A stretch of DNA of 64,000 nt from Squalus acanthias (lineage: Eukaryota): positions 59,708,001 to 59,772,000 of the forward strand of contig CM059432.1 of assembly GCA_030390025.1 (NCBI GenBank). Reading direction: 5' to 3'. Below, in pieces: positions 10,606-63,853 of the stretch; position 1 is the first letter of the stretch, and each line of letters starts with the position of its first letter. A program made the translations under genes and the position numbers. The notes under the pieces were generated by a model. It was not told the DNA's origin and made no database searches. It saw nothing but the letters and a program-made list of their open reading frames with translations.

Positions 10606-10698
10606 TCACATATCTTTGAGGGTTCTTCCAGTGCAACAGGTTTGAACTGATGATTCCTTAATAACAAATGCATCAGCATTTGGCAAAAGATTGGGATT
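10606..10698 (-). CDS. RAB10-like GTPase, probable last coding exon 6 (NPNLLPNADAFVIKESSVQTCCTGRTLKDM*)
   Basis: Strong acceptor CTTTTATTTTTTTCTAG; phase 0 matches the exon 5 donor; contains Cys-Cys; TGA at 10608-10606; followed by ~700 bp of non-repetitive AT-rich sequence with ATTAAA at 9934-9929. Confidence 0.62.
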   Translation of the reverse strand, partial: NPNLLPNADAFVIKESSVQTCCTGRTLKDM

Positions 10699-12757
10699 CT
10701 AGAAAAAAATAAAAGGTAAGATTATCATAATAGAAAGGCAATTCAAACAAAAATCATGTGGTGGGACGGGGGTATTTTTCTCCGCGATCCCATCAAAAAT
10801 CACAGTGGAAATGGCAATAAAATGGGCTGGTGAAGCCAACTGTCATCACACCAACCAACCAGAATTTCCCTCCCCCTGCGCTGCTGGAACTGCCATTGCT
10901 AGCTCCTTCTCTGCCCGCCTCATGCAAATGGTAGCAGGTGGATGGGTGTTGCCTGCATCTTGGCAGATTCTTCTTCTGTCTGTCAGTATTACTGCCACTT
11001 CCCAGGGCTACCATGGGACGGTGACAATAGGGTCCGGGAGAACAAAGCTCAAGATGGAAGACACAGGCCCCGATTTGAATTACTCCCGCCTGGGAGAAAC
11101 CGGGCAGGGGAGCAATTAAAATGAGGCCAGTCACTTACACCCTCTGATGTCCTGCTTGCCTGCTCAAAAGAGCAGGTTAAGATCGGAACATGGCGTGAAG
11201 GCAGTAGGGTCATTCCTTAAATATGCAGATCGGGTCCAATAATGTCATCGGGACTCGATTTGCAATTTAAGTCAGACGCCTGAGTGGGAGAGCGGTGACA
11301 GCTTCCCCGTCAGGCCATACTTGCCGGGACCTGGATTGTGGGCCAGAAGAGGAACAGCAATGTAAGTGTAAAAAAAATTATTTCAGATTTCCTTGTGGAC
11401 CAGGAGGAGCAGAAGTGGTCCTCTGGGCCTCACAGGGAGGTCTTTGGACCTCCCTTGCCCCGGGCAGTCCCTGATCACGGCAAGAGTCCCTCCTCCCATC
11501 CGTTGATCGTGGCCAGAGGCCCCCCCCTCCACATCGCCTCCAGAGTCCACCCCCTCAACTGACTGCCAAGGACCATTCCCACTGGTGCCCAGCTGCGGCC
11601 TTCTGCCAGCGAATTCCCACTCTCGCACGCCGGCCAGGTAGTGGAAATACCACTGGAGGAAGCCACCACTATGGAATACCCTCAGTCGGTAGGAAGAAGT
11701 AGCTCTCCAAATTCTGGATATATACAGAGTGCGAGGTTGGAGTTAAGCTGGCAGCAGAAGTTTGGTGAAGGCAGAGCAAAGCTCATCAGAAATCTTCGCA
11801 GCTTAATGTGCTTTCTCAAAGTATTGCTATGCCCATAAACTCAGCAACTGATTCTTCAAGGGGCAATGCCATGGTTTGTACAGCTAATCAAGCTTCTTTG
11901 TCTTTCACTTCAAAGGGGGAGCTGTTCAGCAAGAGGTTAGTTACTCTGATGACCCACCAGGCACTTCCAAAGAAATAGCTGCTGCAACTCCCAAATCAGT
12001 CATTACTGTCACTTCCTCATAATCTCTGTCATGACATCTAACCTGCACAAACACCAGCACAAAAGACACTCACACATTAGGAAAAACTTAGTGACTCATA
12101 AGGGTTGTCACCTAGCACTGGGCAATAGTGAGACTGAGAGCCTGGGAATAGAAGGGAGGGGCCATTCCTCCACAGAGGGGGCAGTTGACTACCCTCATCT
12201 TGACCATGCCCAGTCTTCAAAAGAGCAATGATTAAGCAGCATAGATCTCATGCGGAGACAGTGAAGACAGTTTCCACACATATAAGTGCGAGATGTCCAC
12301 TACCTGCATCTGCAACACATTACAGGATGTATCTCTTGACCTGCAGAATACCCTGGAGTCAGTGACAGCGCAGAAGATACCTGCAGTATCAAGATGTTGG
12401 GAAAAGCTTCTAAGATCATTATTGGCTTCTAGAATGGCAGCCACCACTGCTTCCCTAGATGATTTCAGCACGACAATGTCACAGGGCTTGCAAGAGCTGA
12501 TTGGGACTATTCAGTCTGTGATGAGATGACACAAACCAGTAGAACTGCTCTGCCTGTGTCCTGCACCAGTGTGCTGGAAGAACTGGACACACATGTCACT
12601 GTCTCTCTGGAGAGTGGCAGTGAGCCTGCTCCTTTAAGGCCTCCTCCGATGTCCAGAAAAGGGCCCGGCATCCCTTGTTATTGCAAGAGAAAGGCTGCCA
12701 GAAACAGATCCCTCTAGCAGCAACTACCCTGAGGCTAGATTCACCTTCAGACTCTAA

Positions 12758-13651
12758 GGGGGAAAAATTAGGTCGCGCCCCATTTGGGGCGCAAATATCG
12801 TCTGGACGCAAATATTAGCGCCTGGCGCTAATTATCGGCACTGACTGGAAACTTCACTTTTACCGCCCCGGGAGGTGAGTGGAGCGCTAAATCAGGCGCT
12901 GCACACCTGTCTTAAGGCGCAAAGGCCAAGGAGTGAGGCGCTAACTCAGAGCGCTGGCGAAGCTCATGTAATGTCAGTCAGCAATGGAACACACACACAA
13001 TGGCACGGGCCAGTTCTTAAAGGGGATGGTTAATCTTGCTTTCCATCCACATCCTGTTCATTGCAGCCTTGAATCTCGGCCTGGAGAGACTTGCACATCA
13101 AATGTGCTGGAAAGAACAATGGAGAGTACCAGGCAAAGAGCTCAGAGTGCAGCTCCCACAGTCTCTGCTAAATCGATACAAGGAATGGCAAATCAAAATG
13201 AACCTGCAAAGTGCTGCTCAGTACCCAAAACTCCTTCACACAACGTTGAATATCTCCAGAAGTCTCTCCCTCTCTCTCTCAGAATGCGTAGTTCAAAAAT
13301 GCCACCAACAATAAAAGACAGGAAGAGGCCCCCTTTAAATAGCGCCCCCCCCCAGCCCCACAGCGATTGATAGCGTTCCAGTCTTCTGGTCATTGGATGC
13401 GCCAGGCGGTAAGGCAAGGGGCGCCACTCAATTTCCGCTCCGGGGCGCCACAAGGGCGTTGCACCATGGAATGACATCACAATCTGCGCGCGCAGGTGGT
13501 CGCAGCGGTAAGTTTTAGCGCCACCACACAATCTCTAGTTAAGTTCCCGAGCGGCGCAAACATCGCTGCGCCCGGGCGTTAGCGGCTTTGCGCCCCATTA
13601 GCGCCCTCTTAAGGCGCTAACGGGAGGCGCAACCAACTGAATTTTTACCCC
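12758..13651 (+). mobile_element. Non-autonomous PIF/Harbinger-type element, copy B (894 bp)
   Basis: TIRs GGGGGAAAAATTAGGT / AACTGAATTTTTACCCC; 3-bp TSD TAA (12755-57, 13652-54). Confidence 0.88.
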
Positions 13652-13775
13652 TAAGGCTCCAGGGGACCATTCTCTGTCAACCATTGCTCAACCTCATCTC
13701 ATTCAGGAAGCAACTTGTATGAGTAGTAGAGTAAGAGCTAGAACAAGTCAGTTAGCTGATACAAAGAAGAGTCAT

Positions 13776-14651
13776 GGGGGAGAAATTCGGTATCGCCCCA
13801 TTTGGGGCGCAATTATCGGCCGGGCGCAAAGTTTAGCGCCTGCCGCTAATTATCGCCTCCGACTGCAAACTTGGCTTCTATCACCCCTGGAGGTGATTGG
13901 AGCGCTAAATCAGGTGCTACACACCTCTCTTAAGGTGCTAACGCCGAGGAGTGAGGCGCTACCTCAGAGCGCTGGCGAAGCTCATGTGATGTCAGTCAGC
14001 AATGGAACACAGACACAATGGCGCCGGCCAGTTCTTAAAGAGGAGGGTCGACCTTGTTCTCCATCCACACCCTACTCATTGCAGCCTTGAATCTCGGCCT
14101 AGACAGACCTGTACATCAATTCTGCTGGAAAGAACAATGGAGAGGCCCAGGGAAAGAGCTCAGAGTGCAGCCCCCAAGTCTCTTCTAAATCGATGCAAGG
14201 AAGGTCAAATCAAAATGAACCTGCAAAGTTGCTCAGTGCCCAAAACTCCTTCACACAGCGTTGACTCTCTCCAGAAGTCTCTCTCTCTCAGAATGTGTGG
14301 TGCAAAAATGTTGCCGACAAAAAAGGCAGGAAGCGGTCGCCTTTAAATAGCGCTCCCCCAGTCCCTTCCCGACTGCAAAACGTTCCCCTCAACCTGTCGT
14401 TGCTAGCGGCAGGCAGAAAGGCAGGGGGCACCACTCAATATCTGGTCCGGGGTGCTACCGGGGCGTTGCACGCTCGACTGACGTCACGATCTGTGGGCGC
14501 AGGAGATCGTGGCGGTAGTGTTTAGCGCCGCTGCAAAATGTCTGATCAATTTCACGAGCGGCGCAAACATCGCCATGCCCGTTGCTTTGCATCCCATTAG
14601 CGCCCTCTTAGGGCACTAATGGGAGGCGCAAAGCAACCGAATTTTTCCCCC
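13776..14651 (+). mobile_element. Non-autonomous PIF/Harbinger-type element, copy C (876 bp)
   Basis: TIRs GGGGGAGAAATTCGGT / ACCGAATTTTTCCCCC; collinear with copies A and B; CAT flanks the left end and overlaps the right end. Confidence 0.88.
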
Positions 14652-14899
14652 ATAGTGTTAAGAAGTAGTTGTAGATAAGGAGAATTAATTTTTATGGCAC
14701 CCTGTTGCTGAATGTTGTTGTTTAATATAAACATGGCTTGATCACATGGAGTTGTGAGTTCATGTCTGTGTATGCTTTCTGGGAGTTTGATGATGGCAGA
14801 GGAAATGAAGACTTCTGACTTATGAAAAAACTTGAAAGAAGTCTTGGAGAGTGAGGTACTTTGTGAGGATGTGGGGGAGTTCAGGCAGAGGTGAAGTGA

Positions 14900-15720
14900 C
14901 TTTATTTTGGTAAGTCAACATTTATTTTTTGAAAGTGCTAGGCTATTATTTATGCTCCCCTTGCTTTGGTACTTGGCTGCTTGCTATCCTGTTCCAGTTC
15001 CTTTCCTTGCTGCGAATCCGCCTCATGCTGTGGAGCTGCAGGTGCTGCCTCCTCCTCCTCGTCATCAGCCTTCAGGTTCTGGAACCAGCAAGCCTTTCTT
15101 CTTGCAATGTTATGAAGCACACAACATGCGACCAAGGACCTGGAGACTCTGGCTGGGCTGTACACCAGTACTCCACCATATTTATCCAGCCACCTAAAAT
15201 GAGACTTCAGATTGTCTATAGTCTGCTCTATGACACTTCTTGTGGTTACCTGGTCTTATTATATCTGTTATTCCTATCTGTCTGCGGAATTTTCACTGAA
15301 GTCAGCAACCAGGAGCAGAGGGGATAGCCCTGGTCACCAATTAACGACACTGATACATGGCTTTGAGTCAAGGCAGCTCCCTGGGTATATGGCATTGACA
15401 CATAGGATTAGGTGGTTAGCATTGAATACTAGCTGCACAATGATGGAATGGAAACCCTTTCTGTTCATGAAATAGAGAGGGCTTTCATAGACGACTTTGA
15501 ATGACACATGAGTTTCATCAGTTGCTCCCTGCACCAGTGGGAAGCCAGTGGACATGAAAAGGAATGGGTCGGAGAGGCCGGTCATGCTTCTGTGATCCCA
15601 TTTACATGGAACAGGAAGCACTTTTGGTGAGTTTTAAAGGGGATTGGTGTTTTTTTTTGACAGCAGAAAGGAGGTGCAGCTTTTTTGTGGCAGATTGGAG
15701 GTGGCAACCTTAAAGAACCC
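14900..15720 (-). pseudogene. Degraded Harbinger (HARBI1-like) transposase
   Basis: GFPLVQGATDETHV, NRKGFHSIIVQLV, YPGS, YSPARVSRSLVACCVLHNIA, then an acidic tail. Confidence 0.8.
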
Positions 15721-15779
15721 ATTCTGCTCTTTTTACTGCCCCCAAACAGGCGGTAACTCAGAGGAATCTCCCCTCTCAT

Positions 15780-16110
15780 GTCTAAAGGTTTTGATAGAAG
15801 TAGGGGCAGAGCAAAACTAGAGGCCATCAATATAAGATCATCACCCAGAAATCAAATAGGGAATTCAGAAGAAACTTCTTTGAGAGTGGTGAGAATGTGG
15901 AACTCACTACCACAGGGAGTAGTTGAGGCGAATGGTATAGATGCATTTAAGGGGAAGCTAAATAAGCATATGAGGGAGAAGGGAATAGAGGGTTATGCTG
16001 ATAGAGATAGATGAGGAAGGATAGGAGGAGGCTTGAGTGCAGCATAAATGCCGGCATGGACTGGTTGGGCTGAGTGGCCTGTTTATGTGCTGTATATTCT
16101 ATGTAATGCT
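15780..16110 (+). mobile_element. CR1 LINE 3' end fragment
   Basis: RVVRMWNSLPQGVVEA...FKGKL; GGGCTGAGTGGCCTG and TTCTATG tail. Confidence 0.8.
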
Positions 16111-16250
16111 ATATAAACTATAGAGAAGGATCTATCTGTCCAAACAATGCAATCTCTTCTTCAGCACGCCATTGCTATGTTCTACCAGAATTTGAGCTTC
16201 ATTGAATTTCCAGTCTGTATCTATTGTTCTCAAGTAGTCGTAGCTGCAGT

Positions 16251-16405
16251 CAATGTTCTTGCTAAGCTGCGTGGCCGCACAGCGGTCTGGAGGGCCCACG
16301 CAGGCCGCTCACCGGCTTTTATATGGAAGAAACTGCGCATGCGTGAAAATCTGAATGGGCCGCGCAGCCAGTAAAAGGGACTAAAAAAAATTAGAGGGTA
16401 CATTG
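16251..16405. mobile_element. hAT-type MITE, 155 bp
   Basis: TIRs CAATGTTCTTGCTAA / TTAGAGGGTACATTG; perfect 8-bp TSD GCTGCAGT (16243-50, 16406-13). Confidence 0.85.
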
Positions 16406-16904
16406 GCTGCAGTGGGTATCCTTGGTTCTCTAGCAGTCACTTATCGATTCTGCCTGTTCCTTCAAATAATAGTGACATGGTGAACTACTACAAAATGAAG
16501 GCCACATGACTGGTTCCATAGTATCATGCATTCATGTTCATTATTCATATCTTACAGTCTGAGACCAGCTGCATATTAATAGAATGGAAGCTGTCATGTT
16601 TCAAGATTTCAAGATTTTTTGATCATTTTTCCATAGAAAGGAGTTGAAGAAAAGAATTACTTTTGAGTTTTAGGGTTTTAAAACAAAGCAGAATTGCACA
16701 AGTTTTAAAAGAAGGCCACAGGCTGATGGCATTTGCCGAATGTGTCTTTTGCATGTTTTTAAAAAAAATCTCCAAAGGCAGGCCAAGCTAATTCTTGGTG
16801 ATAAGAGGCTTGATACAAATTGTTAAGCTGCTTTATTTCACATCAGGTGAACATACGGAGCCAGAGTTATGATCAGAGTTACTTATTTCAGTCAATACAA
16901 CTTG

Positions 16905-17088
16905 GCCTAGAAATTCATCTTGGGCAGTGGCGCAAAACAGGTGGTATCAGATTGGCTGCCCGTTATACGCAGCGCCTCATATTCCGTTCCATTGCAGTCA
17001 ATGGAACTGAATATCAGGTGTTGCATATAATGGACAGCTGATCCGATAACGCCCGTTTTGCGCCACCGCCCGAGATAAATTTCTAGGC
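16905..17088. mobile_element. Fold-back MITE (184-bp imperfect palindrome) with Harbinger-type termini
   Basis: GCCTAGAAATT...AATTTCTAGGC; arms pair along the whole length around a central CCATTG-CAGT-CAATGG. Confidence 0.8.
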
Positions 17089-17674
17089 TGTTGTCTTTGC
17101 ATCCTAAAGCAAAATAAAGAATATGCCACACTTCCCCATGTCTTGACTTAAACAAGAGGGGGGAGAAATTGGGCTCTGTAGTGCCCGTATTTTAGGTGCT
17201 ACATGGTGTCCTGACACTCGAAAATGGGGTCCAAGATGAGCGTGCACACTTCCAATGGGAAGTGTGCCAAACACCATCTTGGTAAATGGGTTTGCGCGTG
17301 CGCACCTAACAACTGCCGGCAGCATGACGAGCTGTCAGATTAAGATGTCAATTAGTGTGCAACGCAGATTTAATGCCAGCACTGCCACTTTTGAACGCCA
17401 CGCTCCAGCCTACGCTCTTGTCTTAACCTCGCGCAGCTGAACACGACATTAAACGGAATAAGAGGAACCCCACCTCCGCTATTTAAAGAGATCACAACAT
17501 ACTTACAGGTTAGTTGTTGGATTATTTCCTCTGGCTGCTGGTGCAATTGTAAGCATTTTTGGAGCTTTCCTATACTTGCCTAAAGTTTCAATAGTCCACA
17601 GGGAGTGCTCTGGCTGGTGCTGAAGTACTTTTGTGTTGATTTAAAAACTTGTGCTGAAACAAGTTGCTTCCAGA

Positions 17675-18595
17675 CATAGGAGGCCATTTCGGCCCATCAT
17701 GTCCGCGCCGGCCAACAACGAGCTATCCAGTCTAATCCCAGTTCCCAGCTCTTGGTCCGTAGCCCTGCAGGTTAGAGCATCCCAAGTGCACATCCAAGTA
17801 CTTTTTAAATGTGGTTAGGGTTCCTGCCTCTACCACCCTTTCAGGCAGTGAGTTCCAGACCCCCACAACCCTCTGGGTGAAGGAATTTCCCCTCAAATCC
17901 CCTCTAAACCTTCCACCAATTACTTTAAATCTGTGCCCCCTGGTTTTTGACCCCTCTGCTCAGGGAAATAGGTCCTTTCTATCCACTTTATCTATGCCCC
18001 TCATAATTTTATACACCTCAATAAGGTCTCCCCTCAGCCTCCTCTGTTCCAAGGAAAACAGACCCAGCCTATCCAGTCTTTCCTCATAGCTAAGATTCTC
18101 TACTCCCGGCAACATCCTTGTAAATCTCCTCTGTACCCTCTCTAGTGCAATCACATCTTTCCTGTAATGTGGTGACCAGAACTAGACGCAGTACTCTAGC
18201 TGAGGCCTAACTAGTGTTTTATACAGTGGAAGCATAACCCCCCTGCTCTTGTATTCTATGCCACGGCTAATAAAGGCAAGCATTCCGTATGCCTTCTTAA
18301 CCACCTTATCTACTTGGCCTGCTATCTTCAGGGATCTGTGGACATGCACTCCAAGGTCCCTTTGTTCCTCTACACTACTCAGTGTCCTACCATTTAATGT
18401 GTATTCCCTTTCCTTGTTAGCCCTCCCCAAATGCATTACCTCACACTTCTCTGGATTGAATTCCATTTGCCACTGTTCTGCCCACCTGACCAATTTATTG
18501 ATATCTTCCTGCAGTCTACAGCTTCCTTCTTCAGTATCAACCACACAGCCGATTTTAGTATCATCTGCAAACTTCTTAATCATACCCCTATATTC
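17675..18595 (-). mobile_element. CR1 LINE RT/3' fragment
   Basis: FADDTKIG...LYKTLVRPQLEYCV, RRLRGDLIEVYKIM; reverse-complemented 3' tail near 17680. Confidence 0.92.
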
Positions 18596-18596
18596 A

Positions 18597-19418
18597 AGTT
18601 CTGGAGCACAAGTCTTCAGCACTACAGCCGGGTTGTTGTTGGGGCCCATAGTCTTGGCTACATTTAATGCGATCAGCTGTTTTTTGATATCACGTGGAGT
18701 GAATTGAATTGGTTGAAGACTGGCTTCTATGATGGTGGGGATCTCCGGAGGAGGCCGAGATGGATCATCCACTCGGCACTTCTAGCTGAAGATGGTTGCG
18801 AATGCTTCAGCCTTGTCTTTTGTACTCACATGCTGGGCTCTGCCATCACTGAGGTTGGGGATGTTCATGGAGCCTCCTCACATTAGTTGTTTAACTGTCC
18901 ACCACTATTCATGACTAGATGTGGCAGGACTGCAGAGCTTTAATCTGATTCGTTGGTTGTGGGATCACTTAGCTATGTCTATAGCATGCTGTTTCTGCTT
19001 ATTAGCATGCATGTAGTCCTGTGTTGTAGCTTCACCAGGTTGGCACCTCATTTTTAGGTATGACTGGTGCTGCTCCTGACATGCTCTTCTGCACTCTTCA
19101 TTGAACCAAGGTTGGTCACCTGGTTTGATGGTAATGTTAGAGTGATGGATATGCCGGGACAAGAGGTTACAGATTGTGGTGGAAAACAACTCTGCTGCTG
19201 CTGATGGCCCACAACGCCTCATGGATGCATAGTTTTGAGCTGCTAGATCTGTTCTGAATCTATCCCATTAGCGCGACATGATGGAGGGTGTCCTCAGTGT
19301 GAAGACAGGACTTTGTCTCCACAAGGACTGTGCGGTGGTCACTTCTATCAATACTGTCATGGACAGATGCATCTGTGACAGGTATATTGGTGAGGTCGAG
19401 GTCAAATAAGTTCTTCCC
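18597..19418 (-). mobile_element. Second LINE family (L2/CR1-group) fragment, host of the solo LTR
   Basis: MRRCGPSAAAELFSTTICNL...PGDQPWFNEECRRA matches 37766-38287 and 54494-55831. Confidence 0.85.
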
Positions 19419-20900
19419 TGTAAGATTCTCAAAATTCACAGATCTCCCAAAACTCAAAGAAAAACCCTAAGGAAAAAGACTTTGGACTCTTTTCTAGCTA
19501 TTACAGGGTGGTGAAATACATTGGGCCTAACCGAAGGACTTTTTTGAGCAAAAACCAAGATTTGGTATTTTAAAAGACATGTCTGGGCTTGTAAGGGAGA
19601 AAAGGCTGTGAAGGAAGGTGGGTTGAACCTCTGTAAAGACAGTTTGGGTATTGGAGCTAATGTCTGGGGAACCGCATGATCTCGCTGGGAGTTAAATTGG
19701 CCCCTATCAGACATTAACATCCTAACAATAAACCCGAGGAAAAGCAGTCTCCACCCCAATTTACAGAGCCCATTAAAAACATGCATAAAACAGATCACTG
19801 TGACCTACTCTATAGAAATCCCAGGCCCAGTCAAGAAACCCAAAACTTGGGGACAATCAACTACGATTAAGTGGCAAATCGACAGGATGGAACCATCCCG
19901 AAACCACTTCACACCTTAACAAACAAGTTACCGTTAACGAGCCCGCCAAAATCTAACAATGACCGGGATCTGATTTGGCGCGCAGATAAGGAAGCTTCAA
20001 TTAGTATAATTGAAGGCCCGTTCTCAACCTGAAAAAGAAGAAGAGGAAGGAAGAAGGACAAATCATCCATGGAGGCGTTCTCCGCAACACAGTTCTCCAG
20101 CACCACCGTTCAGCATTCCGTGTCCAGCCAGAAGGTCGACAGCTCGAAGGCCAGACCATTCAACAAAGTAGGCCGACACGTGGAAGAAACCCGAACGACC
20201 GCCTCAGTGACCATCGGACACCTCGCGGCAACAAGGCCCTCATGAAAACAACCAACCGAACATCAAGTACCAAGATTGGGCCACCGCGACCAAAGAAAAC
20301 CAACTCGAAGAAAAACCGAAGATCTGCAAAGTTTCCACTCTACAATCTACTCCTGACTTACCCCTGGATAAGATTTTCCCTAAAAAACTCTAAACCCTAC
20401 TTCTAAACCAAAGAAAAGTGGGTACTCACCTGATAGATCCAATACGCACCCTACCGCATCAGCGGACTAGCGAAGACTGACCAGATACGCAGTTGAAGTC
20501 CTCTACCGCGTACGGGGTACGGCAGACACCAACCAACATATAGAGCAAACCCCAAAAACGCGAACTAGCCCAACTGTCAAGGATTCTGGTGAGTATCATC
20601 CCTGGTCCTCCGGAGTCCAACCTAGCTGGTGAAGTGGGATTGGGAGGGGTGAAGTATTCTTCTAATGTTATTTCCCTCGTTTGTACCGAAGTGTTCCCCA
20701 CTTTTAGAGTGTTAAGAGTGTTTGTGTTATATTTTACTTTCTTGAATAAAGATCAAAGTTCTTGCATCAAAACCAGTTGTCTGCTGCACTTTTTATCACA
20801 ACCCCCCAAATAAGTCCAAGGTCTAGAACCAAGGGAGTGGGAGCGATTTGAACCACTCAGAAGTCAGAGGTGAAGCTGACACAAACCACCACCCCCTACA
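19419..20900 (+). mobile_element. Solo LTR, 1482 bp
   Basis: Starts TGTAAG, ends CCTACA (short inverted termini, TG...CA); 4-bp TSD TCCC (19415-18, 20901-04); AATAAA at 20745-50; interrupts a LINE; no recognisable coding domain. Confidence 0.8.
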
Positions 20901-21375
20901 TCCCTCATGTTTGCAGGTTTTGTTCACCCTGTTCCTGTCCCGTCAATCCAGATGACCAACCTTGGGGCTTGCTTCTTGACCTCTCCCCCATCCTGGAATT
21001 AGCCAGAAGAGCTACTAATCAAACCTGCTACCATACCCACTGCATTTGAAACAAACTTCATGCAAAGCTAAATAGGAAGGGGCATTCAACCCCGAAAGTG
21101 TTAATGTTTGCTGGGAACAGATAATGACTCAGCTATGATTTTCCATCATCTTGGGTAACAGTATCAATAGCCCCAATTTGAACTCAAAGCGGTATTCCGG
21201 CAGCAAGGGCTGAGGCGGGTGGCAAACCATCCTGACATCAGCAACGTGAAGCACAGGCGATTTTAACTCCTGGGCCTCAGCTGCGTGACCCCGGTCAGTT
21301 GCCTGCCCAAAACCGGCAGAAGAGCAGGCTGAAATTCAGTGTGGGACATTGGCGGGTAAGTCTCCTGGGCAATTT

Positions 21376-32688: not shown

Positions 32689-32689
32689 T

Positions 32690-37412: not shown

Positions 37413-37419
37413 GATTCCT

Positions 37420-50911: not shown

Positions 50912-51060
50912 TTCCTGCCCTGCATATGTCATTGAAGCGTTTCCTGCATTGGATCCAAGAATGTGGCATCACACTCCTGCTGCTGTCCTCCTGGGCATCC
51001 TCTAACCACACCTTCTTTGTGTCAGCAGCAGGCTTCTTCCTCCCATTACTAGGGAATAGT

Positions 51061-51825: not shown

Positions 51826-53499
51826 AATATCTCCTTCTGGGTCCTCACAGATCCCAGTAGCACCTCCAGGGAGGCATCTGTGAAACAGGACGCATCCTTT
51901 GCCCATCTCGACTCCAATGCAATACTTGTTTGTCTCTCCCTCCTAACTCCAACTGCTTCAACTTGCATGTTTGGAGTGTCCCTTTAAATACTGGAGTTGC
52001 GATCGCGCCATGAGGGTCATCATCACGCCCGCTGACGCTGGATAATAACAGATTCAGGAAGTGAGCCACCTCAGATAAGTGATATTAGCCAGGAGAGTGA
52101 TCCGTCAGGGACTGGAGCTGGAGAACAATACAATCAGGCAAAGTATTTAGGAGTAAATGACAAAGGAACAGATAATGTAGGGCCCGAATAGCCACATATA
52201 TGACCATTGGCTCAAAACTCATGGAGATGCAGAGTGGTGTTTTCTGGTATGCATGTTTTTCTAGTATAAAAGCAAGGCATTCATCAAGAAGTAAATGAGT
52301 GGCTGGCAGCATAGTGTTTGTACAACAATGCTGCCTTCATAAATAACTGGGAATTCTTCAAGAATAAAAAGTACTTCTACAGGAGAGAAAGGCTACACCA
52401 AGTAAGAACAAAAATTCTTGTAAGGTACATGGAAGCAGCAATAGAAAATTATTTAAACTAGACAGATGGTGAGGGGAGGGGAGGGAAGAAAAGGGATCTC
52501 AGATGAGACAGATCATAGGGTAGAAGGTAGTCAGCATTCAGGTATGGACTAGAAACTCTAAAACCTGCCGACAAAACAATGCTGCTTTCTGAGCACCATT
52601 AATTTATTGAGTCCTTTGAGAATGTGCAAAGAACCCTGCAAAGTGTGACAGATAGTATGGAGGTGTCCATCACCCTTATCTGTGCAATGACATTTGATTG
52701 CTTCACAAAAGTGCAGTCCACCCTCGAGGGCTTAGCATATCCAGGGCATCCGTAGCAATGCCCCACCTTAGCAGAGGTCCTAAGCACAGCTATGGATTCT
52801 CTCAGGAGTAGTATAACTGATGTCATTGAGACATTGGGCTCCAATGTCCTTGAGTTGGTTCTGTCTAGATTCATCACACTGGTGAGTCATCTGGACAGAA
52901 CCTGACAGAGGGCTTCAGCAAGGTCATTGTAGCATCAACACAGACGGCCGGACATGTTGAGGGAATTGGCAGCAGCAGGGGCATGGCAGAAGTAGGCACA
53001 TATGAATTCTGTCAGCTCTCATCCATGCCACCTAGCCACTCCACTCAAATGATCCATGTAGAACCAGAAAGCAAGCAGGCCCAGGAAGCTACTATAGTAT
53101 CATACATGGCACCTGCAGTTGCAGGATGATTTTATTACCCTGCTTAAGGAGATAGCAACCCACCCCGTCCCAGGAAGCCTTCATGGATTTCCAGCAATAA
53201 GCCAGCTCACTTCATTCTTCCACTAGGATAGCACCTAAAAGAAACCATAGATTAGGTAGCAGAAGACACTCACCAGTCACAAAGGGGAAGAACCTCGGTA
53301 AGAAACATTGATGCTGCACAAAGAAACTCTTGCATAAATGCATTTTTAGAATTTGGAATTGAACTTTGTGCTGGAAAATCATTTGTCTCGTAACACATTT
53401 CTGCTTCAACAAACTTGGAGCAAACAAAACTGGTAAAGTGGGATTTCCTTTGGGGTGCAAATAGTGCTACATGATTTGGATGAAAAAGATGATTTGATG

Positions 53500-53870
53500 A
53501 GGAGGCAAAAGGGCACCTGAAATTCCATTTGAGGCATTATGTAGATACCTATTCTTAACCCAGGACCCACATTTACAGACAAATACATACCTACCTGGGT
53601 CTCTCAGAGGAGGCTTGTCTTTGCTTCACTTCACAAGGAAGCCCGTTAGTGAGTTGTGCCATCTCCACCAGAATGACCTGCAGACAACTTTGGCAACAGG
53701 GAAGGCGCTTCCTGTAGCTGTGAAGGTCACCACTGTATTAAGTTTTTATGCTACTGGATCCAGAGCGGCATTTGCCAATTCAGCCAATCTCTTTACCACA
53801 GATGCATCAAACAATCAGGCAGAATACAGCAGTCTAGCAATTCTTGGCTACCACAAAAGCTGCAGGTGCA
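53500..53870 (+). pseudogene. Degraded Harbinger transposase 5' fragment
   Basis: [19 protein letters not shown]. Confidence 0.65.
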
Positions 53871-54602
53871 ACCATGGTCGGGGTTAACGGCCGTCAAAAA
53901 TGGTGGCACTGGCAGGACCGAAAAATTGGCACTGGGAACTAATTATCATTCGCCCAGCACTTAACTCACCGTGGAACACCGTCCTGGTGGCGTTGGTCCC
54001 GGCAGGAGGCTCCAATGTGGCGTGGCCCAAGCGTCGTTGCCTCTAGAACAGCCTGCTCTGAAAGCAAGGCTGTGATTTCAGAAAGCACTGTCATTTTCTT
54101 GAAAGGGCAATGCCTTCTGAATTGAAAAAAATAAAAATGATGTAAAAATATATGCAGTTTGTAGTCCTTACAGCTCAACTGCCTTCTGAAAGAGAAATAA
54201 CATTAAAAAGAATTCCCAAATGGGAGTCTTTAGCACTTAAAGCTGAATTCCTTCCGCACCTAAAAAAATGGGAAAAGTTCTTCAGCACTAACACAAATAG
54301 CTCAGCAAGCCAGGGAAGGGGCATCCAAGGTCTCGTATACAGTACTCCAACTTTGTGCAGGGAGTTAACACTGCAAGAGAAGTCCTCTATCCACAGGGGC
54401 CAGGAGGCCCTCCAGAAAGAACGACATCACTGAGGCCATCACTCCCAGCAGTGTCACTTCCCATGACCTGGCTGTAGTGTCCAAAGAAACTTCATGACCT
54501 CAGACCAGTGGTCAAGGTCAGTGACTGCATCTTCAAAAGCCGTCGCCTACCAACTGCATCACTCGCCTCACACACTCCACGCCCGCCCCCCCCCACCGCC
54601 AT

Positions 54603-55905
54603 CGTGTTGTGTGGCACACCGCCGTGCTAAATGGGATAGATTCAGAACAGATCTATCAGCTCAAAACTGGGCATCCATGAGGCGCTGTGGGCCATCAGCA
54701 GCAACAGAATTGTATTCCACCACAATCTGTAATCGCATGGCCCGGCATATCCCTCACTCTACCATTACCATCAAGCCAGGGGACCAACCCTGGTTCAATA
54801 AGGAATGTAGAAGAGCATGCCAGGAGCAACACCAGGCGTACCTAAAAATGCGGTGCCAACCTGGGGAAGCTGCAACACAGGATTACATGCATGCTAAAAA
54901 GTGGAAGCAGCATGCTATAGACAGAGCTAAGCAATCCCACAATCAACGGATCAGATCAAAGCTCTGCAGTCCTGCCACATCCAGTCGTGAATGGTGGTGG
55001 ACCATTAAGCAACTAACGGGAGGCGGAGGCTCCATGAATATCCCCATCCTCAATGATGGTGGAGCCCAGCATGTGAGTGAAAAAGACAAAGCTAAAGCAT
55101 TTGCAACCATCTTCAGCCAGAAGTGCCAAGTGGATGATCCATATCGGCATCTTCCTGAGGTCCCCACCACCACAGAAGCCAGTCTTCAGCCAACTCGATT
55201 CACTCCACGTGATATCAAGAAATGGCTGAGCGCACTGGATACAGCAAAGGCTGTGGGCCCCGACAACATCCCGGCTGTCGTGCTGAAGACTTGTGCTCCA
55301 GAACTAGTCGCGCCTCTAGCCAAGCTGTTCCAGTACAGCTGCAACACTGGCATCTATCCGACAATGTGGAAAACTGCCCAGGTATGTCCTGTCCACAAAA
55401 AGCAGGACAAATCCAATCCGGCCAATTACCGCCCCATCAGTCTACTCTCAATCATCAGCAAAGTGATGGAAGGTGTCGTTGACATTGCTATCAAGCAGCA
55501 CTTACTCACCAATAACCTGCTCACTGATGCCCAGTTTGGGTTCCTCCAGGACCACTTGACTCCAGACCTCATTACAGCCTTGGTCCAAACATGGACAAAA
55601 GAGCTGAATTCCAGAGGTCAGGTGAGAGTGACTGCCCTTGACATCAAGACAGCATTTGACCGAGTGTGGCATAAAGGAGCCCTAGTAAAACTGAAGTCAA
55701 TGGGAATCGGGGGGAAAACTCTCCACTGGCTGGAGTCATACCTAGCACAAAGGAAAATGGTTGTGATGGTTGGAGGTCAATCATCACAGCCCCAGGACAT
55801 CGCTGTAGGACTTCCTCAGATAGTGTTCTAGACCCAACCATCTTCAGCTGCTTCATCAATGACCTTCCCTCCATCATAAGGTCAGACGTGGGGATGTTCA
55901 TCTAC
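54603..55905 (+). mobile_element. Second LINE family fragment (tether + RT N-half, long open frame)
   Basis: ORF 54494-55831: PGDQPWFN, GPDNIP, NYRPISLLS, QFGF, LDIKTAFDRVWH. Confidence 0.92.
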
Positions 55906-57339
55906 CAACAATCACGAGGCACACCTCCCATTCCTAGCTTCACCTCACCCCCTTGGAGGAGATGGTGCAGGCCATCCTTGGCAGGGGCATGGCTGAGCCC
56001 TTGGCCAGCGGTGGGGCTGAAAGGATATAAGATGCTGGTATCCTCATACGTTATCCTCCTTCTTGAATGCACCTGTTGCTTTCCTGCCCTCCTCTCACAA
56101 CTCCAACCTTGTGCCTTCCTCATTTCACACACCCAAGAAATGCAGCCTGCCCAGCCAGTGGTTGGCCAAGAAGAGGGAGAGGAGAGTGAAGAAGAAACAC
56201 TGTCACTCGATTTCACACTCCCAGCCACCAGCTCCTCAAGGTCGACCAGCAGTGCCATTTTCAGTGTCCCCCACTGAAAGTCAGCAGCATTCCACCAGCC
56301 ATGGTGCAGCCACTGGGGTAGCACTACGTGACATCAGTAGGATAGGCAAAGGCACACACAAGACAGTCACTAAGGGAATGCATAAGGTTGATGAGTTGAT
56401 TTCTTGATGTCATATTGGATGGATAGATGTATAAAGTTCGATTGAAAAGTTTGCTTTATGGTGGCTTTTATTTCAGCATTGTGTCCAAGAGGATGCTGTG
56501 ATGGTCAGTAACAGAGGGAAGGTAAGGTGTTGGACAAATGTTGAAAGGGGAATTGGAGTTGTGGTCACTGGTACTGCAGGCGGATGATTCAATCCCGGAT
56601 ATCCCGGCCAGAAAGGGGCTGTCTGGGCTGCATCCTTCCTTCTGCTTCCTCCTCTTCTATGTCTTCCTCTTCTGCGCCTTCCTCTTCTGCACCTTCCTCT
56701 TCCCTCTATGAGCGGATGATGTAAATCTGAAATAAAAGCATAGAATGCTGGAAATACTCAGCAGATCAGGCAGCATCTTGACCTGAGATATGAACTTTGT
56801 TTTTCTCTCCACGGATGCTGCCTGACCTGCTGAGTATTTCGAGCATTTTCTGTCTTCTTAGAGGCCTTCCTTTACTATCTGCAGCCTTTCAAGCATCCAG
56901 CAGCACTCCCTACACATTTAAAAATCTTTTAACATGTATTGCCCCAAGCCACTACTACAATAAAATTTAAAAATCCAGTACAAAAGCTTAAATGCAAACT
57001 TACCTGAAAGATGTGTGTGTCCTTTAAGAGGTGCTGACAGCATCTCTGTCAGCCTGCTGAACGCTGGGCTTTCATGGCGAGCTTAGGACCGAGCGCTGAA
57101 CTTAGCGCTAAGGTCAAAGCTCGCTGAGGTGACGTTAAGTCGACATTGCACGCCGACTGATGTCACCCTCTCTTAATTTACATTTACAGGGCCAGCGCTG
57201 CTATTGGCAGCGCTAAGGCCCTCACCAAAATGGCGGCTGCCGAGTCCCGCGCCAGAGAATGGCGTTCGAGTGGCCGTCACCATTTTTCGACTGGATTGTG
57301 GCAAAATCTCGTGGTGGTAAGTGGCCCAATTTCTAGGCC
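55906..57339. mobile_element. Internally deleted Harbinger remnant with right TIR
   Basis: Myb-like exon pieces (EEGEESEEETLSL), acidic transposase tail on minus strand near 56640-56705, terminus CCAATTTCTAGGCC identical to that of 42370-45587. Confidence 0.6.
56744..56847. mobile_element. Inverted Penelope-like terminal fragment (34-bp arms)
   Basis: AATGCTGGAAATACTCAGCAGATCAGGCAGCATC / GATGCTGCCTGACCTGCTGAGTATTTCGAGCATT; right arm matches 58004-58037. Confidence 0.65.
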
Positions 57340-57911
57340 AGAAAGTGCAGGGGGAAATTGAAAAAAGATATAAGGAGAGGGCAAGGAGAGGGTATAAGTA
57401 AATATTAGTGGGTAACATAAAAAGGAACCCAAAAATCTTTTATAAACATATAAAAAGTAAAAGGATAGTTAAAGGAATGGTGGGGCAGATCAGATACAAA
57501 ATAGGAAATTTTCTTGTGGAGTCAGAGAAGTACCACCTAACAGACTTATTCGGAAAATAGAAGTACACGGTATTAAAGGGATGGTGGTAACTTGGGTACG
57601 TAATTGGCTAAGGGATAGGAGGCAGAGAGTAGTGGTGCACAGATGTTTTTTGGGCTGCAGAGAAGTATACAGTGGGGTCCCCCAGGTATTAGGACCATTG
57701 CTTTTCTTGTTATATATAAACGACCAGGACTTGGGTATAGGGAGTACAATTTTGAAGTTTGTGATTAATAAAGAACTTGCAACGTAGAAAATAGTGAGGA
57801 GGATCGTAGCAGACTGGTGAAATGGGCATACACATAGTAGATGCAATTTAACATGTTTAAGTGTGAAGTGATGCACTTTAGGAGAAACAACATGGAGAGG
57901 CAGTATAATCT

Positions 57912-58049
57912 GCACTTGCTTAAAATCTGTTACATCTCTAACTTTTTCCAGTTCTGACGAAAGGTCATCGACCTGAAACGTTAACTCTGTTTCTCTCTCC
58001 ACAGATGCTGCCTGACCTGCTGAGTATTTCCAGCATTTTCTGTTTTTAT
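57912..58049 (+). mobile_element. Penelope-like element terminal fragment inserted in CR1
   Basis: Flanked by 8-bp direct repeat TATAATCT (57904-11, 58050-57); removing it restores the CR1 reading QYNLNG; carries a hammerhead core. Confidence 0.75.
57950..57986 (+). ncRNA. Minimal hammerhead ribozyme motif (PLE type)
   Basis: AGTT-CTGACGA-A-AGGTC/ATC/GACCT-GAAA-CG-TT-AACT: both catalytic boxes, 5-bp stem II, palindromic stem III (ACGT), 4-bp stem I. Confidence 0.65.
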
Positions 58050-59706
58050 TATAATCTAAATGGTGCTATTTTGAGGAGAGTGCAAGAGCAGGGGGACCTG
58101 GGGTGCATATTCACAAATCCTTGAAGGTGGAAGGGCAAGTTGATAAGGCAGTTAAGAAAGCATATGGGATATTTGTCTTTGGAAATAGGGGCATTGACTA
58201 CAAAAACAAGGAAGGCATGCTAAACTTTTACAAATCATTGGTTAGGCCTCAGCTGGAGTATTGTGTACAATTCTGGGTACCACACTTTAGGAAGGATGTC
58301 AAGGCCTTGGAGAAGATACAGAGGAGGTTTACTAGGATGATACCAGGTATAAGGGACTTCAATTATGTGGAGAGATTGGAGAAGCTGGGGTTGTTCTCCT
58401 TAGAGCTGAAAAGGTTGCGGGGAGAGCTAATAGAGGTATTCAAAATTATGAGAGGTTTTGATAGAGCAAGTAGTGAGAAACAGTTTCCTCTGGTAAGTGG
58501 GTTGATAACCAGCGGTCATAGATTTAAAATATCTGGCAAAAGTACTAGAGGGGAAATGAGGAGAAATTATTTCACAGAGAGGGTTATGATCTGGAACGCA
58601 CTTCCTGAAAGAGAAGTGGAATCAGACTCCATAGGAACTATCAAAAGGCAATTGGACATGTATTTGAAGAGAACTAATTTGCAGGGTTATGGGACTAAAT
58701 TGGACAGCTCTTTCAAAGAGCTGGCACAGACATGATGGGTCGAATGACTCCCCATTCTGTGCTGTAAGATTCTATGATTCTAAGTGACAGACAGCCGTCA
58801 TTTGCAAGGGGCAATACCTTCATCACTTTCACTGTGAAAAGGAGGAATCAGTCTGACAGGGCACCGAACTTTTACTGGATCGTGGTGTTGCCAAGATGGC
58901 AGGGCATCATAGATGTGTAAGTCAATGCCTAATATCCAGGAAGCACCCATGACGCCTTCATAATGCAGCAGAACATTATATGATTTATATGAAGGCCCAG
59001 GAAGATCAGATGGATGACTGCGAAGAGAGCAGGACTAACCTCTTCAGCCCTGGCTGATTAACCCCTCAAATTTATCAACGCACAATAGCCCAATAATCAC
59101 CATGTTTTCCATTCTCATATACACTACCATTCCTCTCATCTGCTGCTACCTGAATATAGCCCTCCCCAAAAAAATATTCTGGATGAAGGTAAAATAAAAT
59201 TTACCAAAGCTAATGACCTAATGGCCCAGATTTTGCTGGAGCATGGCATCTCGTGGCGTGCTCCATTAGTTAGACATTTTCCCTCACGCTTCAGTTCGAA
59301 CAGTTTTTGCTGTGCAAGTTGCTGGAAGTACAAGCTGATAATGGCGCGGCAAACACAACCTGGGACGTAGTTAAATGACGGGACCAATAGTCTAGCTCCT
59401 TAACCAATGAGATTTAATGATTGAGAATTAAACAGGAATGACGAAGATAGGTTGATTGGCATTGCAGGGACATAAATCTCACTTGAAAGGTATTTATGCT
59501 GTTAAGTAGTAGCCCTAACTTTCTGCGGCGAGTTTAATTGGCAATTAAGGCACAAATGCAGCAATTTCATGAAACTCATGGTGAGGGTGAGGGTGAGGGC
59601 GAGCTTTGTTTTTGCGAGGCTAATGGCGGAGCAGCGCAAATCACCAGCAACATGTGGCGATTCAAAATTTACGGGGTATCACTTCCTCACTACAAGTTGC
59701 TGGACG

Positions 59707-59967
59707 ATTTTTTTTTCCATTCACAGCATGTGGGCATCGCAGGCAAGGTCAGCATTTATTGCCCATCCCTAATTGCCCTAGAGAAGGTGGTGGTGATCCG
59801 CCTACTTGAACCACTTCAGTCTGTGAGGTGAAGCTACTCCCACAGTGCTTTTAGGTAGGGAGTTCCAGGATTTTGACCCAGCGACAATGAAGGAAAGGCG
59901 ATATTTTTCCAAGTCAGGATGGTGTGTGACTTGGAGGGGAACTTGGAGGTGGTGGTGTTCCCATGCA
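59707..59967 (-). mobile_element. 3' tail of the second LINE family
   Basis: CATTTATTGCCCATCCCTAATTGCCCTAGAGAAGG is the reverse complement of the tail at 39870-39902 and 41635-41665. Confidence 0.82.
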
Positions 59968-60778
59968 GGCTGCGAGTCTTTCCAGCAAAGTCTCTATCCA
60001 GTGTCACCTCATTGGAAGAATCTCTCTCACCATTGACAGATTGCTTCTGTCATCTCAACTTCACCTGCCATGTATTCCATCAACATGGGTGCCATTTAAA
60101 CTGCCTCACCTTGGTCCTCAGAATCTGACCACGATGAGCCCCAACACCTACAGCACCAGGCACACCAGCAGCACCAATAACAACACCAACCTTCTCTGCA
60201 ATCACCTGATGCTGCACAGGACAGAGGGCATCAGCAACCAAGCACTTTGCTGCCTGGGAGGCTAGGGATGGCCTCATCATGGCCAGATTTACTTAACTTT
60301 ACGCTGTACACCCATATGGCTGCCACATGATGCACCAGATTGGCACCACCCCACACTAACACCATAAAGCATCCCTACAATGACCAAGCCATTTCTTTCA
60401 CACTCAACACCATTGCTGGAGGTACTGTTATGTCTCACCATTCACTGCAACTCACTAAGCCACTTCCAAAGGTGCACACAAATCTGTCCAAGACCGGAAA
60501 GTGTTGAAAATAAACATGTTTATGTTTGACAGCACATTAGCAGAAACTTTACATAAACATCGGATAAAACACTCAAGTGGCTACCCTTGTGAATCTACTT
60601 GCGTGTCATCTTTCTCTTCCACTTGCTTCTATGAGGTGCTACTCCTGTGGCTTCAGCAGAGGCAGCCTGCGCACTTCTCTGCTGCCAAGGAGCTGGAGAG
60701 CACCTTGCTGCACATCAGTAGGGCCATGAGGACCCACGTCTACGCTGACATCCCTCCTAGAGAGGTCTATTAGCCTCT

Positions 60779-60837
60779 GCCATCTATTCTCCATACATAG
60801 CCATCTATTCTCCATACATAGCCATCTATTCTCCATA
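60779..60837. repeat. About three tandem 21-bp units (MENRWLC heptad) in Myb-like exon 3
   Basis: GCCATCTATTCTCCATACATA x2 plus a partial third unit. Confidence 0.92.
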
Positions 60838-62331
60838 GAGACCATGTGCTCCTGTGAGTGGCACATTAGCTGCTCCATGTAGGTGGCCATCCTATCCATG
60901 GAGGAGCCTACAGTCGCCATCACCTGCGACATGGTGGTGCTCATGTTGGAGATGGACTCTTCCATTTTCTGAACATTTGCAGACATCACGCTCGCAAAAC
61001 CTGTCAGAGTCCCCTGCACCTCCAGGATCGCCCTCTTTCTGGATGGCCCCCAAGGCTCAGCGTCTGCATGCAGCTGAGCAGAACTGGGAGCATCCTGCAC
61101 CCTCTGGCAAGGCCTCTCCACTGCTGACCCTGTCTCCACCATCTGCTCTTGCTCACTTGTGAGACACCAGGTGACAAGACTACTCTATGTTGCATGGGAC
61201 CCACCCAGGTGTGCGTATCTGCGCTGGTGCTGGGTGCACTTATGTCTGGTGACGGTGCGCCCTCAGAGGCTGGTGGCTCCTCTGAGGCATCGCCTTCCTC
61301 TTCCTCCTGGACGGGGGGGGGGGGGGGGCGGGGAAGGGGCTCTTGATGGACCTGTGGGAGAGTAAAGAGGTGAGTTAGATATGTCATATGAGGAATGGGG
61401 ATAGATATCATTATGCACATGATGACCATTCAATGGCTGCTGACATCAGTTCCCATATGAGTGACTGATGTGGCCATGTAGCTGTATGATATGCAATTCT
61501 ATCACCAGGTTGCTGAGATGTCCTCCTCTCTTCGTCTCCCACCTCCAGCTTCTCGGCGACTCCAGATATTTCTAAAGCAGCCTCCTCTGCTGTTGTAAGG
61601 TTTGCAAATGATGGAGGGCCACCACTGGTTCTCTCCATTTCCCTCTTATTTTGGGCTCTCTTTTCCTGCAAGGAGGGAAAGAAAAGGTTGAGTGAGAGTA
61701 ATGGAATGAGTGTAAGGTATGGATGGGTTAGATCTTTAGAGGGACACTATGATGGAGTGGGGTGCCAAAGCAAGTGGCCTCCTTGTGTGTTGTTAGTTGG
61801 TATGATTGCATTAGGATGAGGGTAAATGTGAGGGGTGGTTAGTCAGATGGGGATGTGATAATGTAGATAGAGAGGGATGGGTGGACATGCAAGGTATGTT
61901 GGTGTAAGGATGTGCAGGTGTAGGGTTGGGAAGGCAGAGTGATAGGGATGTGATGAGAGGCACAGCAGGATGAAATTGAGTGTGGCTTTGCACTCACGTT
62001 TCCTGATCCAATGAGTTCATTGAAACATTTGCAGCACTGCACCCAGGTCCTCCTGACCACATCCCTGCTGTTGACCTCCTCTGCAATCTCCAACCAGGCC
62101 GTTTGTCACCTGGGGAGGTGTTTTCCACCCCTTGGAAGGGAAGAGGACCTCTCTGCGTGCTTTGACTCCCTCCACAAGCATATGGAAGGAGTCATCGGAG
62201 AAGCTGGGTGCAGCCCTCTGCCTCTGTGCAGTCATTTCCAAAGTGTTTTCAGCAGTCCAATGCTGTAGTGCACTGACTGCACTATTTTAGATTAACCTTC
62301 AAATGTAATGTGGCCATGGCCCCTTTAAATA

Positions 62332-62507
62332 TGAGAGGTCGCACAACACCAGGTTATAGTCCAACAGTTTTATTTTAAATCACAAGCTTTCGGAAGGAGT
62401 TGTAACTCCGAAAGCTTGTGATTTCAAATAAAACTGTTGGACTATAACCTGGTGTTGTGCGACCTCTCAATTTTGTCCACCCCAGTCCAACACCGGCATC
62501 TCCGCAT
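62332..62507. mobile_element. Inverted (fold-back) Penelope-like terminal fragment with flanking direct repeat
   Basis: 63-bp arms 62332-62394 / 62407-62469 with 1 mismatch; GGAGTT-GT-AACTCC-GAAA remnant; direct repeat CATGGCCC(C)TTTAAATAT at 62315-32 and 62508-24. Confidence 0.72.
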
Positions 62508-63720
62508 CATGGCCCTTTAAATATCCCAGTTGAAAACGGATGACGTCAGCAGACCTGCACCATTTAATGGGGCCGGGTAATGCGCAGGTTGGGTTGAATA
62601 GGTCCTATTGATGTAAAGTCATTTTGTGCAGCAGGATGGAGCCAGCAACGGGGTCGCGATCCGCCATGGCCACCACCCGCACCGGACCCTCCCAAGTAGG
62701 GAAAATTCTGGCCATAGTGTGTGCTATGCTGCTGTTCTGCAAAGTATACCTCCTGAAAGCATACACAACACATCCAGATTTTAGAATTTGGAAGAGCTAG
62801 ACAACCAACCTTGTGGTCACACTACATTCTTCCTTGTAAGAATCCATCAGAATGCAGTATGCATATATTTTCTGTCAGCAGTGTTGGTTCAGGGTACACC
62901 TTACAAGATTTATGGAGACAATGGAAACTACATCATTGGCACATTGAAAGTGTACCCTATAGCTTTATTTCCATGAAAGCATGTGTGAAAACAGTGAAAG
63001 GTTGTCTCCATGTTTTGTATGCTGCCTCTGAGGATGCTCCAGGACAAGTTCTGTTGGTACCATAATGTTATGTACCAATAGTAACCATCTGTTGAAATTA
63101 GGATACACTTATCTTAGCACTCCTGATACTTTAACATTTCTTGTGCATTTGCTTCTGCAGACCTGGGAGACTGCACTCATTATCTTATTAACCTCCATTC
63201 AGGCAGCTTGCACCTTTGCTTTCACATGAGCTTTAAAGATGGACACCCTTCTTCGCCACAACTTTTAAAGTAGGGCCTCCAAGATATCATCAAAAGGCAT
63301 TATTTGACATTGTACACTTCTAAAAACTTTTAACAAACCAATTACTAAATATTCCAGTACAAACACTACATCTGGCACATCAAAAAATTCAGTGATGAGC
63401 AGCAGCACTTTAAGAGTCGCTGTCATGATGGATTTCCCACCCCAACCAATCATGTCCCTCCCTGCACTTGTGCATGCACAGAGTCTATTAAAATTAGTAG
63501 GAAGGGCTGGCCTTGCAAAATGTAGCGAGGCCAGCCGTCTGTAATCCTGGCCCAAGCCTGCCTGTGCTACTCTTATTTTTGGAAGAGAGAAAACTGATCT
63601 TGTGCTTCTTTTCCTCAATTAACTTAGTTTTGATGTCTTACATGAAGTTAACTCTTGGTGTAGGAAGGTTGGAGAAACTCATGAAAATCAGCTCTTTTAG
63701 ATTTGTCTGACAATACTTGC

Positions 63721-63853
63721 CTATTGTGGGTAAGAATGAAGCATGGAAATTGTCCTCAGTTAATCTCTTTAATATGGCAGTTTTACCTACATTGGAGTCT
63801 CCCACCATAATTATTTTTGAAAGAATATCTCCAGATAGATTCACTTCTTCCAT
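63721..63853 (-). CDS. RAB10-like GTPase first coding exon (MEEVNLSGDILSKIIMVGDSNVGKTAILKRLTEDNFHASFLPTIg)
   Basis: P-loop GDSNVGKT, switch-I PTIG; ATG 63853 in context AACATGG; donor AG|GCAAGT; upstream acceptor TTTCAG at 63897-63892. Confidence 0.93.

Follow-up and report, generated by a model that had tools for sequence, protein, structure and literature searches.

A second, fast-evolving RAB10-type gene of Squalus acanthias, probably the early-duplication twin of RAB10

RAB10 is a Rab GTPase of the Rab8 group which, to our knowledge, is usually treated as a single-copy gene in vertebrates. Two features of its surface are central to the comparison made here. The bMERB effectors touch Tyr6, Asp7, Leu9, Lys11, Asp31 and Ser40, with Lys3 and Lys4 as further contacts, and favour N-terminal lysines over an acidic N-terminus (extract of Rai 2016, PMC5026484), and Thr73 in switch II is the site of LRRK2, required for the binding of RILPL1/2 (extract of Steger 2017, PMC5695910). 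A supplementary catalogue of Rab proteins (supplementary file 4) lists XeLa_Rab10_2 and GaGa_Rab10_2, without discussion, among 27 Rab10 entries and gives one Rab10 each for human and mouse; in extracts of the main text Rab8b and Rab13 are the only vertebrate duplications of the Rab8 group, and the mentions of Rab10 there do not treat a second vertebrate copy (Kloepper 2012, PMC3425129). The window considered here is a stretch of 64,000 nucleotides (nt) of Squalus acanthias (assembly GCA_030390025.1, contig CM059432.1, positions 59,708,001 to 59,772,000; contig C8, 59.71-59.77 Mb), which carries a Rab gene on its minus strand. We regard this gene as a real and ancient ohnologue of RAB10, catalogued and apparently unstudied, with two shark-specific oddities: an alanine at the LRRK2 site and a displaced CC motif. 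With a probability of roughly 70%, it is the early-duplication twin of RAB10 and serves secretory or recycling traffic as a GTP/GDP switch, and its partners differ from RAB10's.

The gene consists of six exons which, as proposed in a sequence-only reading of the window, splice to 621 nt encoding 206 amino acids followed by TGA, with no internal stop. Coding exon 1 (63721..63853, 133 nt) holds the ATG, an acidic N-terminus, the P-loop GDSNVGKT and the switch I residue Thr43. Exon 2 (33547..33610, 64 nt) is one codon longer than its 61-nt counterpart in the RAB10 gene of the same genome, the insertion falling in the beta2-beta3 loop and being common to the chimaera but not to bony vertebrates. 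Exon 3 (30771..30909, 139 nt) carries DTAGQ and switch II, exon 4 (29943..30032, 90 nt) NKCD and exon 5 (29661..29762, 102 nt) ETSAK and helix 5, exons 3 and 5 being unsplit as in RAB10; exon 6 (10606..10698, 93 nt) encodes the hypervariable tail, the CC motif and eight more residues up to the TGA. The G-boxes described in that reading (GDSNVGKT, T43, DTAGQ, NKCD, SAK) and the extra codon are likewise found in the spliced protein and its alignment. The introns measure 30,110, 2,637, 738, 180 and 18,962 nt, all five acceptors are AG and four of the five donors are GT, the exception being the GC donor (gcaagt) of intron 1 at 63719..63720. Contigs from three other organisms (A, B and C) span exon 1 unbroken with few differences, and the donor is GC in A and B and GT in the related organism C, which supports the site. 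The exon model is not a product of chance, since exon 3 alone as query matches seven chondrichthyan proteins at 89-98% identity and the spliced protein agrees with five independent shark models at 82-89%. Many public chondrichthyan models of the gene have exon 1 (four models) or exon 6 (seven models) missing or replaced, perhaps because of the GC donor and the long introns; several of the shark 'Rab-10-like' models thus differ from the window model, which has both exons.

The canonical RAB10 of S. acanthias, located with human Rab10 as query, lies on contig C9 at 63.09-63.16 Mb and rules out that the window gene is the only RAB10 of the genome; the sequence-only view of an intact, RAB10-derived duplicate agrees with this. 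The C9 gene has exons of 127, 61, 139, 90, 102 and 84 nt, encodes 200 amino acids and is 97.6% identical to the human protein over residues 8-174. When canonical RAB10 is defined by more than 90% identity in the G-domain and a position beside GAREM2 and HADHA, the C9 gene falls within the definition and the window gene outside it, its protein being 56.9% identical to canonical RAB10, 53.9% to the RAB8-type and 51.3% to the RAB13-type protein; the canonical contact set (Lys3/4, Tyr6, Ser40 and the LRRK2 site Thr73) is likewise not that of the window protein. Like vertebrate RAB10 (the human protein, PDB 5szj and 5lpn, and the C9 gene), it has FH in switch II, a paralogous neighbourhood and introns at the positions of the C9 gene. 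RAB10 is also the closest solved structure to the catshark orthologue, which is 89% identical to the window protein (expectation value E 2.5e-61, followed by Rab8A at 1.6e-54). This orthologue matches Pfam Ras (E 2.3e-55), and its predicted model has the G-domain order of six strands and five helices with a mean predicted local distance difference test score (pLDDT) of 70.5. Unlike vertebrate RAB10, the family to which the window gene belongs has tree distances about 40-fold longer and has lost the N-terminal lysines, Tyr6 and Gly19, and its shark members have in addition Thr73 changed to Ala, Ser40 changed to Pro, the one-residue insertion and eight residues behind the CC. With RAB8A, RAB8B and RAB13 the protein shares membership of the Rab8 group and likely a similar secretory and recycling role, but in this genome the RAB8-type and RAB13-type genes split the 139-nt exon into 61+78 nt, as the sequence-only reading states for RAB8 genes, and carry 66 nt where the window gene has 102. 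A better candidate for the chicken orthologue was not found elsewhere in the genome with the chicken protein as query, nor is there a RAB10-like match near the third ASXL on contig C11. Three small-GTPase-like matches of equal score, spaced by about 29 kb and each with a stop, lie on C8 at 109.82-109.88 Mb and are candidates for tandem copies or an assembly repeat.

The relationship between the two genes is reflected in their neighbourhoods. On C8 a CABIT/GAREM-type gene (minus strand, 59.58-59.65 Mb), the window Rab (minus, 59.72-59.77 Mb) and a BACK/kelch gene (minus, 59.93 Mb) are followed by an ASXH gene (plus, 60.76 Mb) and a dystrobrevin-type EF-hand gene (plus, 61.69 Mb). The C9 block runs from a dystrobrevin-type gene (minus, 62.22 Mb) and an ASXH gene (minus, 62.52 Mb) to RAB10 (plus, 63.09 Mb), a GAREM-type gene (plus, 63.24-63.33 Mb) and a HADHA-type gene (minus, 63.42 Mb). 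Inverting one block aligns four gene pairs (dystrobrevin, ASXL, Rab and GAREM) in the same order and orientation, with paired neighbour exons that are 57, 78 and 76% identical, where the names of the shark neighbours are taken from Pfam family and order. Because the blocks are mirror images of one another, the window gene is very probably an ohnologue of RAB10 which derives from early vertebrate genome duplication. We take the C9 block to correspond to human 2p23 (DTNB, ASXL2, RAB10, GAREM2, HADHA) and the C8 block to human 18q12 (GAREM1, KLHL14, ASXL3, DTNA), where no Rab is known from the interval that separates GAREM1 and KLHL14. In chicken and Xenopus tropicalis the gene is located on sequences of 149.5 and 154.5 Mb, which we assume to be chromosomes 2 and 6, bearing the 18q12 block. 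Transthyretin, tried as a block marker, gave matches on C6 only and is uninformative. TRAPPC8 and a meprin-type gene, which we take to be neighbours of GAREM1 in human, are found on C8 at 5.11-5.29 Mb, 54 Mb from the GAREM-type gene and thus on the same chromosome but not in local synteny, which implies a rearrangement breakpoint near the C8 block.

The family extends far beyond sharks. Search listings place close relatives in sharks and chimaera, and further ones in bichir, sturgeon, paddlefish, gar, bowfin, coelacanth, frogs, salamanders, caecilians, snakes, a tortoise and birds. Two local profiles separate the family from canonical Rab10 with a margin of at least 38 bits and assign to it 136 of 465 fetched proteins (133 of them named, three others clustering with newts). 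Mammals and teleosts contribute none of the 136, and no ray or skate appears, among the matches listed; those Rab10 proteins of mammals and teleosts that were scored belong with canonical Rab10 by a margin above 100 bits. In a careful tree of 27 rows, 13 of them family and two of them RAB8/13 outgroups, which was computed under a site-heterogeneous model and from which three long-branched, Rab1-labelled outgroups of a first tree had been dropped, all 13 family rows form one clade (support 100/99) that follows vertebrate phylogeny and spans chimaera, sharks, non-teleost fish, coelacanth, amphibians, reptiles and birds. The family clusters with Rab10 against RAB8/13 in this tree (97/96), and all 33 rows of the family alignment stay together in a larger quick tree. 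A shark-specific duplication is rejected by the approximately unbiased (AU) test (p = 0.004), and a placement of the chondrichthyan genes as relatives of RAB8/13 is rejected as well (p = 0.026). Clade and AU test agree with a duplication older than the divergence of sharks and bony vertebrates; for a date after the separation from invertebrates the support is 68/77 only. Given a clade of jawed-vertebrate breadth, the earlier suggestion of a lineage-restricted gene does not hold. Its description as fast-evolving does, the tree distance from shark to bowfin being 1.96 in the family versus 0.05 from shark to teleost in canonical RAB10, and that from shark to chicken 2.13 versus 0.03 from shark to human. 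Most of this divergence is old, since the G-domain of the window protein is well conserved among sharks (91-96%; Heptranchias 96.4%, Heterodontus 95.8%), with 74% to the chimaera. Right before switch I, the orthologues of birds and snakes have an insertion rich in Pro, Ala and Ser and those of amphibians a deletion; frog orthologues end in CxxC.

At the residue level the family combines a fixed core with an altered surface, as counted in RAB10 numbering over a 33-row alignment (ten sharks, chimaera and 22 bony vertebrates). D64, G67, Q68, N122, K123, D125, S152, A153 and K154 are invariant (33/33), as are I44, F46, W63 and F71, while Y78 is kept in 31 of 33; K22, T23 and T41 are kept in 31 rows, the other two being models without exon 1. 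RabF motifs and the aromatic triad F46/W63/Y78 are present. Since the catalytic and triad residues persist in 31-33 of the 33 rows, the alignment shows an intact switch core and an intact triad, with which effectors, REP and GDI engage, and the protein should bind and hydrolyse GTP and be handled by REP and GDI, given that K22, T23, T41, D64, G67, Q68, NKxD, SAK and the triad are all kept. The surface differs. Lys3, Lys4 and Tyr6 occur in none of the 33 rows, and the P-loop Gly19 is replaced in all 31 rows that cover the position, with Asn in the window protein, which also opens with a pair of glutamates and carries Pro at position 40. The position of Thr73 is Ala in nine of ten shark rows (codon Ala76 of the window protein, 30879..30881) and Ser in the tenth, and each of the remaining 23 rows has either Thr or Ser. 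The altered effector surfaces of the sequence-only reading are thus real at residue level, with Lys3, Lys4 and Tyr6 lost family-wide and Ser40 to Pro and Thr73 to Ala changed in sharks. With the N-terminal lysines and Tyr6 gone, and Ser40 replaced by Pro in sharks, the protein would bind the bMERB effectors of the MICAL and EHBP type weakly or not at all, and with Ala at Thr73 the shark form would escape LRRK2 phosphorylation in switch II and hence phospho-dependent RILPL1/2 binding. On balance, an active Rab with changed partners is predicted.

A less probable explanation, although the strongest of the alternatives, has the same origin for the gene but leaves it with RAB10's own job and partners, confined to some tissues; its divergence would then stem from relaxed selection on a copy that is redundant in part. 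The retention of the triad, I44, F71, L9, K11 and K59 would fit such a copy, as would the high rates that persist in several lineages and the apparent loss in two large lineages, which suggests dispensability. However, the family has fixed D106 (33/33), L140 (33/33), F79 (32/33) and S37 (31/33) at positions where Rab10 is near-invariant from insects to humans, its 136 proteins are retained across all sampled jawed-vertebrate groups other than teleosts and mammals, and the G-domain is conserved among sharks to the extent given above. For the twin with changed partners, a narrow role at low expression is probable, with the gene lost towards human, mouse and teleosts. The loss of ohnologues in mammals is common, and the gene does not amount to a new kind of system. 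A bolder extension, which is put forward tentatively and is rather doubtful as a whole, is an unnamed jawed-vertebrate Rab subfamily with its own effectors, overlooked because it is absent from the human, mouse and teleost models, whose shark form would be LRRK2-proof and lipid-anchored through cysteines eight residues from the end, outside the listed patterns.

The tail of the protein can be aligned with bony orthologues as far as the CC motif (Cys197-Cys198, 10633..10638), which is the candidate geranylgeranylation site. A terminal CC or CxC is found in 81 family proteins. In 75 of these exactly two residues stand behind the motif, and in all six shark proteins with terminal CC there are 8-10. 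Bony orthologues have their cysteine motif among the final five residues; in the window protein eight residues follow the CC. At the third codon behind the CC (10624-10626), where bony-vertebrate orthologues stop, the window gene reads AGA, one base from TGA, and loss of the stop codon is therefore likely. The displaced CC lowers the claim of standard prenylation and not that of Rab ancestry. Six prenylation patterns are listed for human Rabs, all with cysteines no further back than the fifth residue from the end (extract of PMC5902227). An unlikely consequence, for which both this listing and the 8-10 trailing residues of the six shark proteins speak, is that the shark tail blocks geranylgeranylation and yields a cytosolic or palmitoyl-anchored protein that serves as a soluble switch or as a decoy for GEFs or effectors. 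RabGGTase relies on REP for recognition (extract of PMC3864799), and because recognition lies with REP and the cysteines are conserved, the reading we prefer is that the CC is probably still geranylgeranylated despite the eight added residues.

Several observations weigh against a RAB10 twin with changed partners. Leu9, Lys11 and Asp7 are kept in the window protein and Asp31 is replaced by Glu, which means that the bMERB surface survives in part, and its CC with eight trailing residues lies outside the six listed human patterns (extract of PMC5902227). Synteny was examined in the S. acanthias genome alone, and orthology to the bony-vertebrate copies would follow from the tree, the shared residues and the presumed identity of the chromosomes. 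Lizards and crocodilians are missing among the matches listed, and absence from mammals and teleosts is suggestive only, as it derives from the best 120 and 150 matches and from two mammals in one catalogue. A spliced transcript of the S. acanthias gene was not seen; three presumed RNA runs yielded no contig that covers exons 2-5 or exon 1, which counts neither for nor against expression. The grouping of the family with vertebrate RAB10 reaches 68/77 only, the tree leaving the branch point unsettled, and the tree program warns of long branches meeting. This warning, together with a shark-chicken identity of 55.7% that is no higher than the 56.9% to canonical RAB10, could be taken to mean that the chondrichthyan and bony 'Rab-10-like' genes are separate duplicates joined by long-branch attraction, which is very improbable in view of the 100/99 support under a site-heterogeneous model, the species-like topology, the shared derived residues, the alignable tail and the rejection of a shark-specific origin. 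That the gene is decaying or silent in S. acanthias is barely credible, since the non-canonical first donor and the displaced CC that would suggest it stand against a six-exon open frame, the G-domain identities to Heptranchias and Heterodontus and a GC donor that is otherwise in consensus context and is GT in a relative.

Orthologues of the gene are present in many genomes under the automatic RefSeq label 'ras-related protein Rab-10-like', including XP_072324732 of catshark, XP_419183 of chicken and NP_001088524 of Xenopus (LOC495396), which fall in the same clade and carry the signature residues, as do XeLa_Rab10_2 and GaGa_Rab10_2 (Kloepper 2012, PMC3425129). The description of the gene as uncharacterised is correct in that no functional study of it was found, in a search that excluded bioRxiv supplements and subscription papers and with the chordate survey of Coppola et al. 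2019 as a possible place of description; it is incorrect in that the gene is annotated automatically and its frog and chicken forms were catalogued in 2012. A search of the ESM Atlas with the pheasant orthologue returned generic Rab clusters only. As orthologues are often mislabelled 'Rab-10' or 'Rab-8' in databases, expression studies can be confused by them. The diverged twin in chicken and Xenopus can be tested in two standard models, and the family as a whole amounts to a natural experiment on how Rab surfaces can change around a fixed switch core. The shark form supplies a natural variant with Ala for Thr73 and could serve to probe the distance from the C-terminus at which RabGGTase still works.

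Transcription is indicated for amphibian orthologues. The Xenopus gene has accessions of the complementary DNA (cDNA) type (AAH84867 and AAI55535), and newt orthologues are full-length proteins on contigs of 1-5 kb. A newt iris transcript whose best match is LOC495396, an assignment made by the BLAST label in the table, is found at 4.8 reads per kilobase per million (RPKM) in dorsal versus 0.3 in ventral iris four days after lens removal (extract of PMC3628982). For S. acanthias, a 192-nt contig of depth 2.9 starts 9 nt upstream of the ATG and is not used as evidence.

The surroundings of the exons are largely repetitive. As lower bounds from self-comparison of the window and from 250 kb of other loci, repeats cover at least 62%, 56% and 45% of the three large introns and none of the two small introns or the exons; the phrase 'transposon-filled introns' is thus apt for the three large introns and not for those of 738 and 180 nt. 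Intron 1 (33611..63720) has the highest cover and intron 5 (10699..29660) at least 45%. Eight long frames scanned gave four reverse transcriptases, one DDE_Tnp_4 transposase, one GDSL-like frame, one sub-threshold family and one without a match. The transposase fragment (42371-43177, plus strand, E 2.8e-30) lies inside intron 1 and is presumably of PIF/Harbinger type. Reverse-transcriptase fragments of long interspersed nuclear elements (LINEs) are located at 3266-4207, 45885-47102, 49773-50780 and 54467-55828, and the GDSL-like frame, typical of LINE open reading frame 1 (ORF1), at 5059-5766. Long repeat-free stretches at 20905-25047 in intron 5 and at 7896-12757 around exon 6 and the 3' end could be regulatory or untranslated sequence, and candidate ATTAAA signals occur at about 10507, 9934 and 9812.

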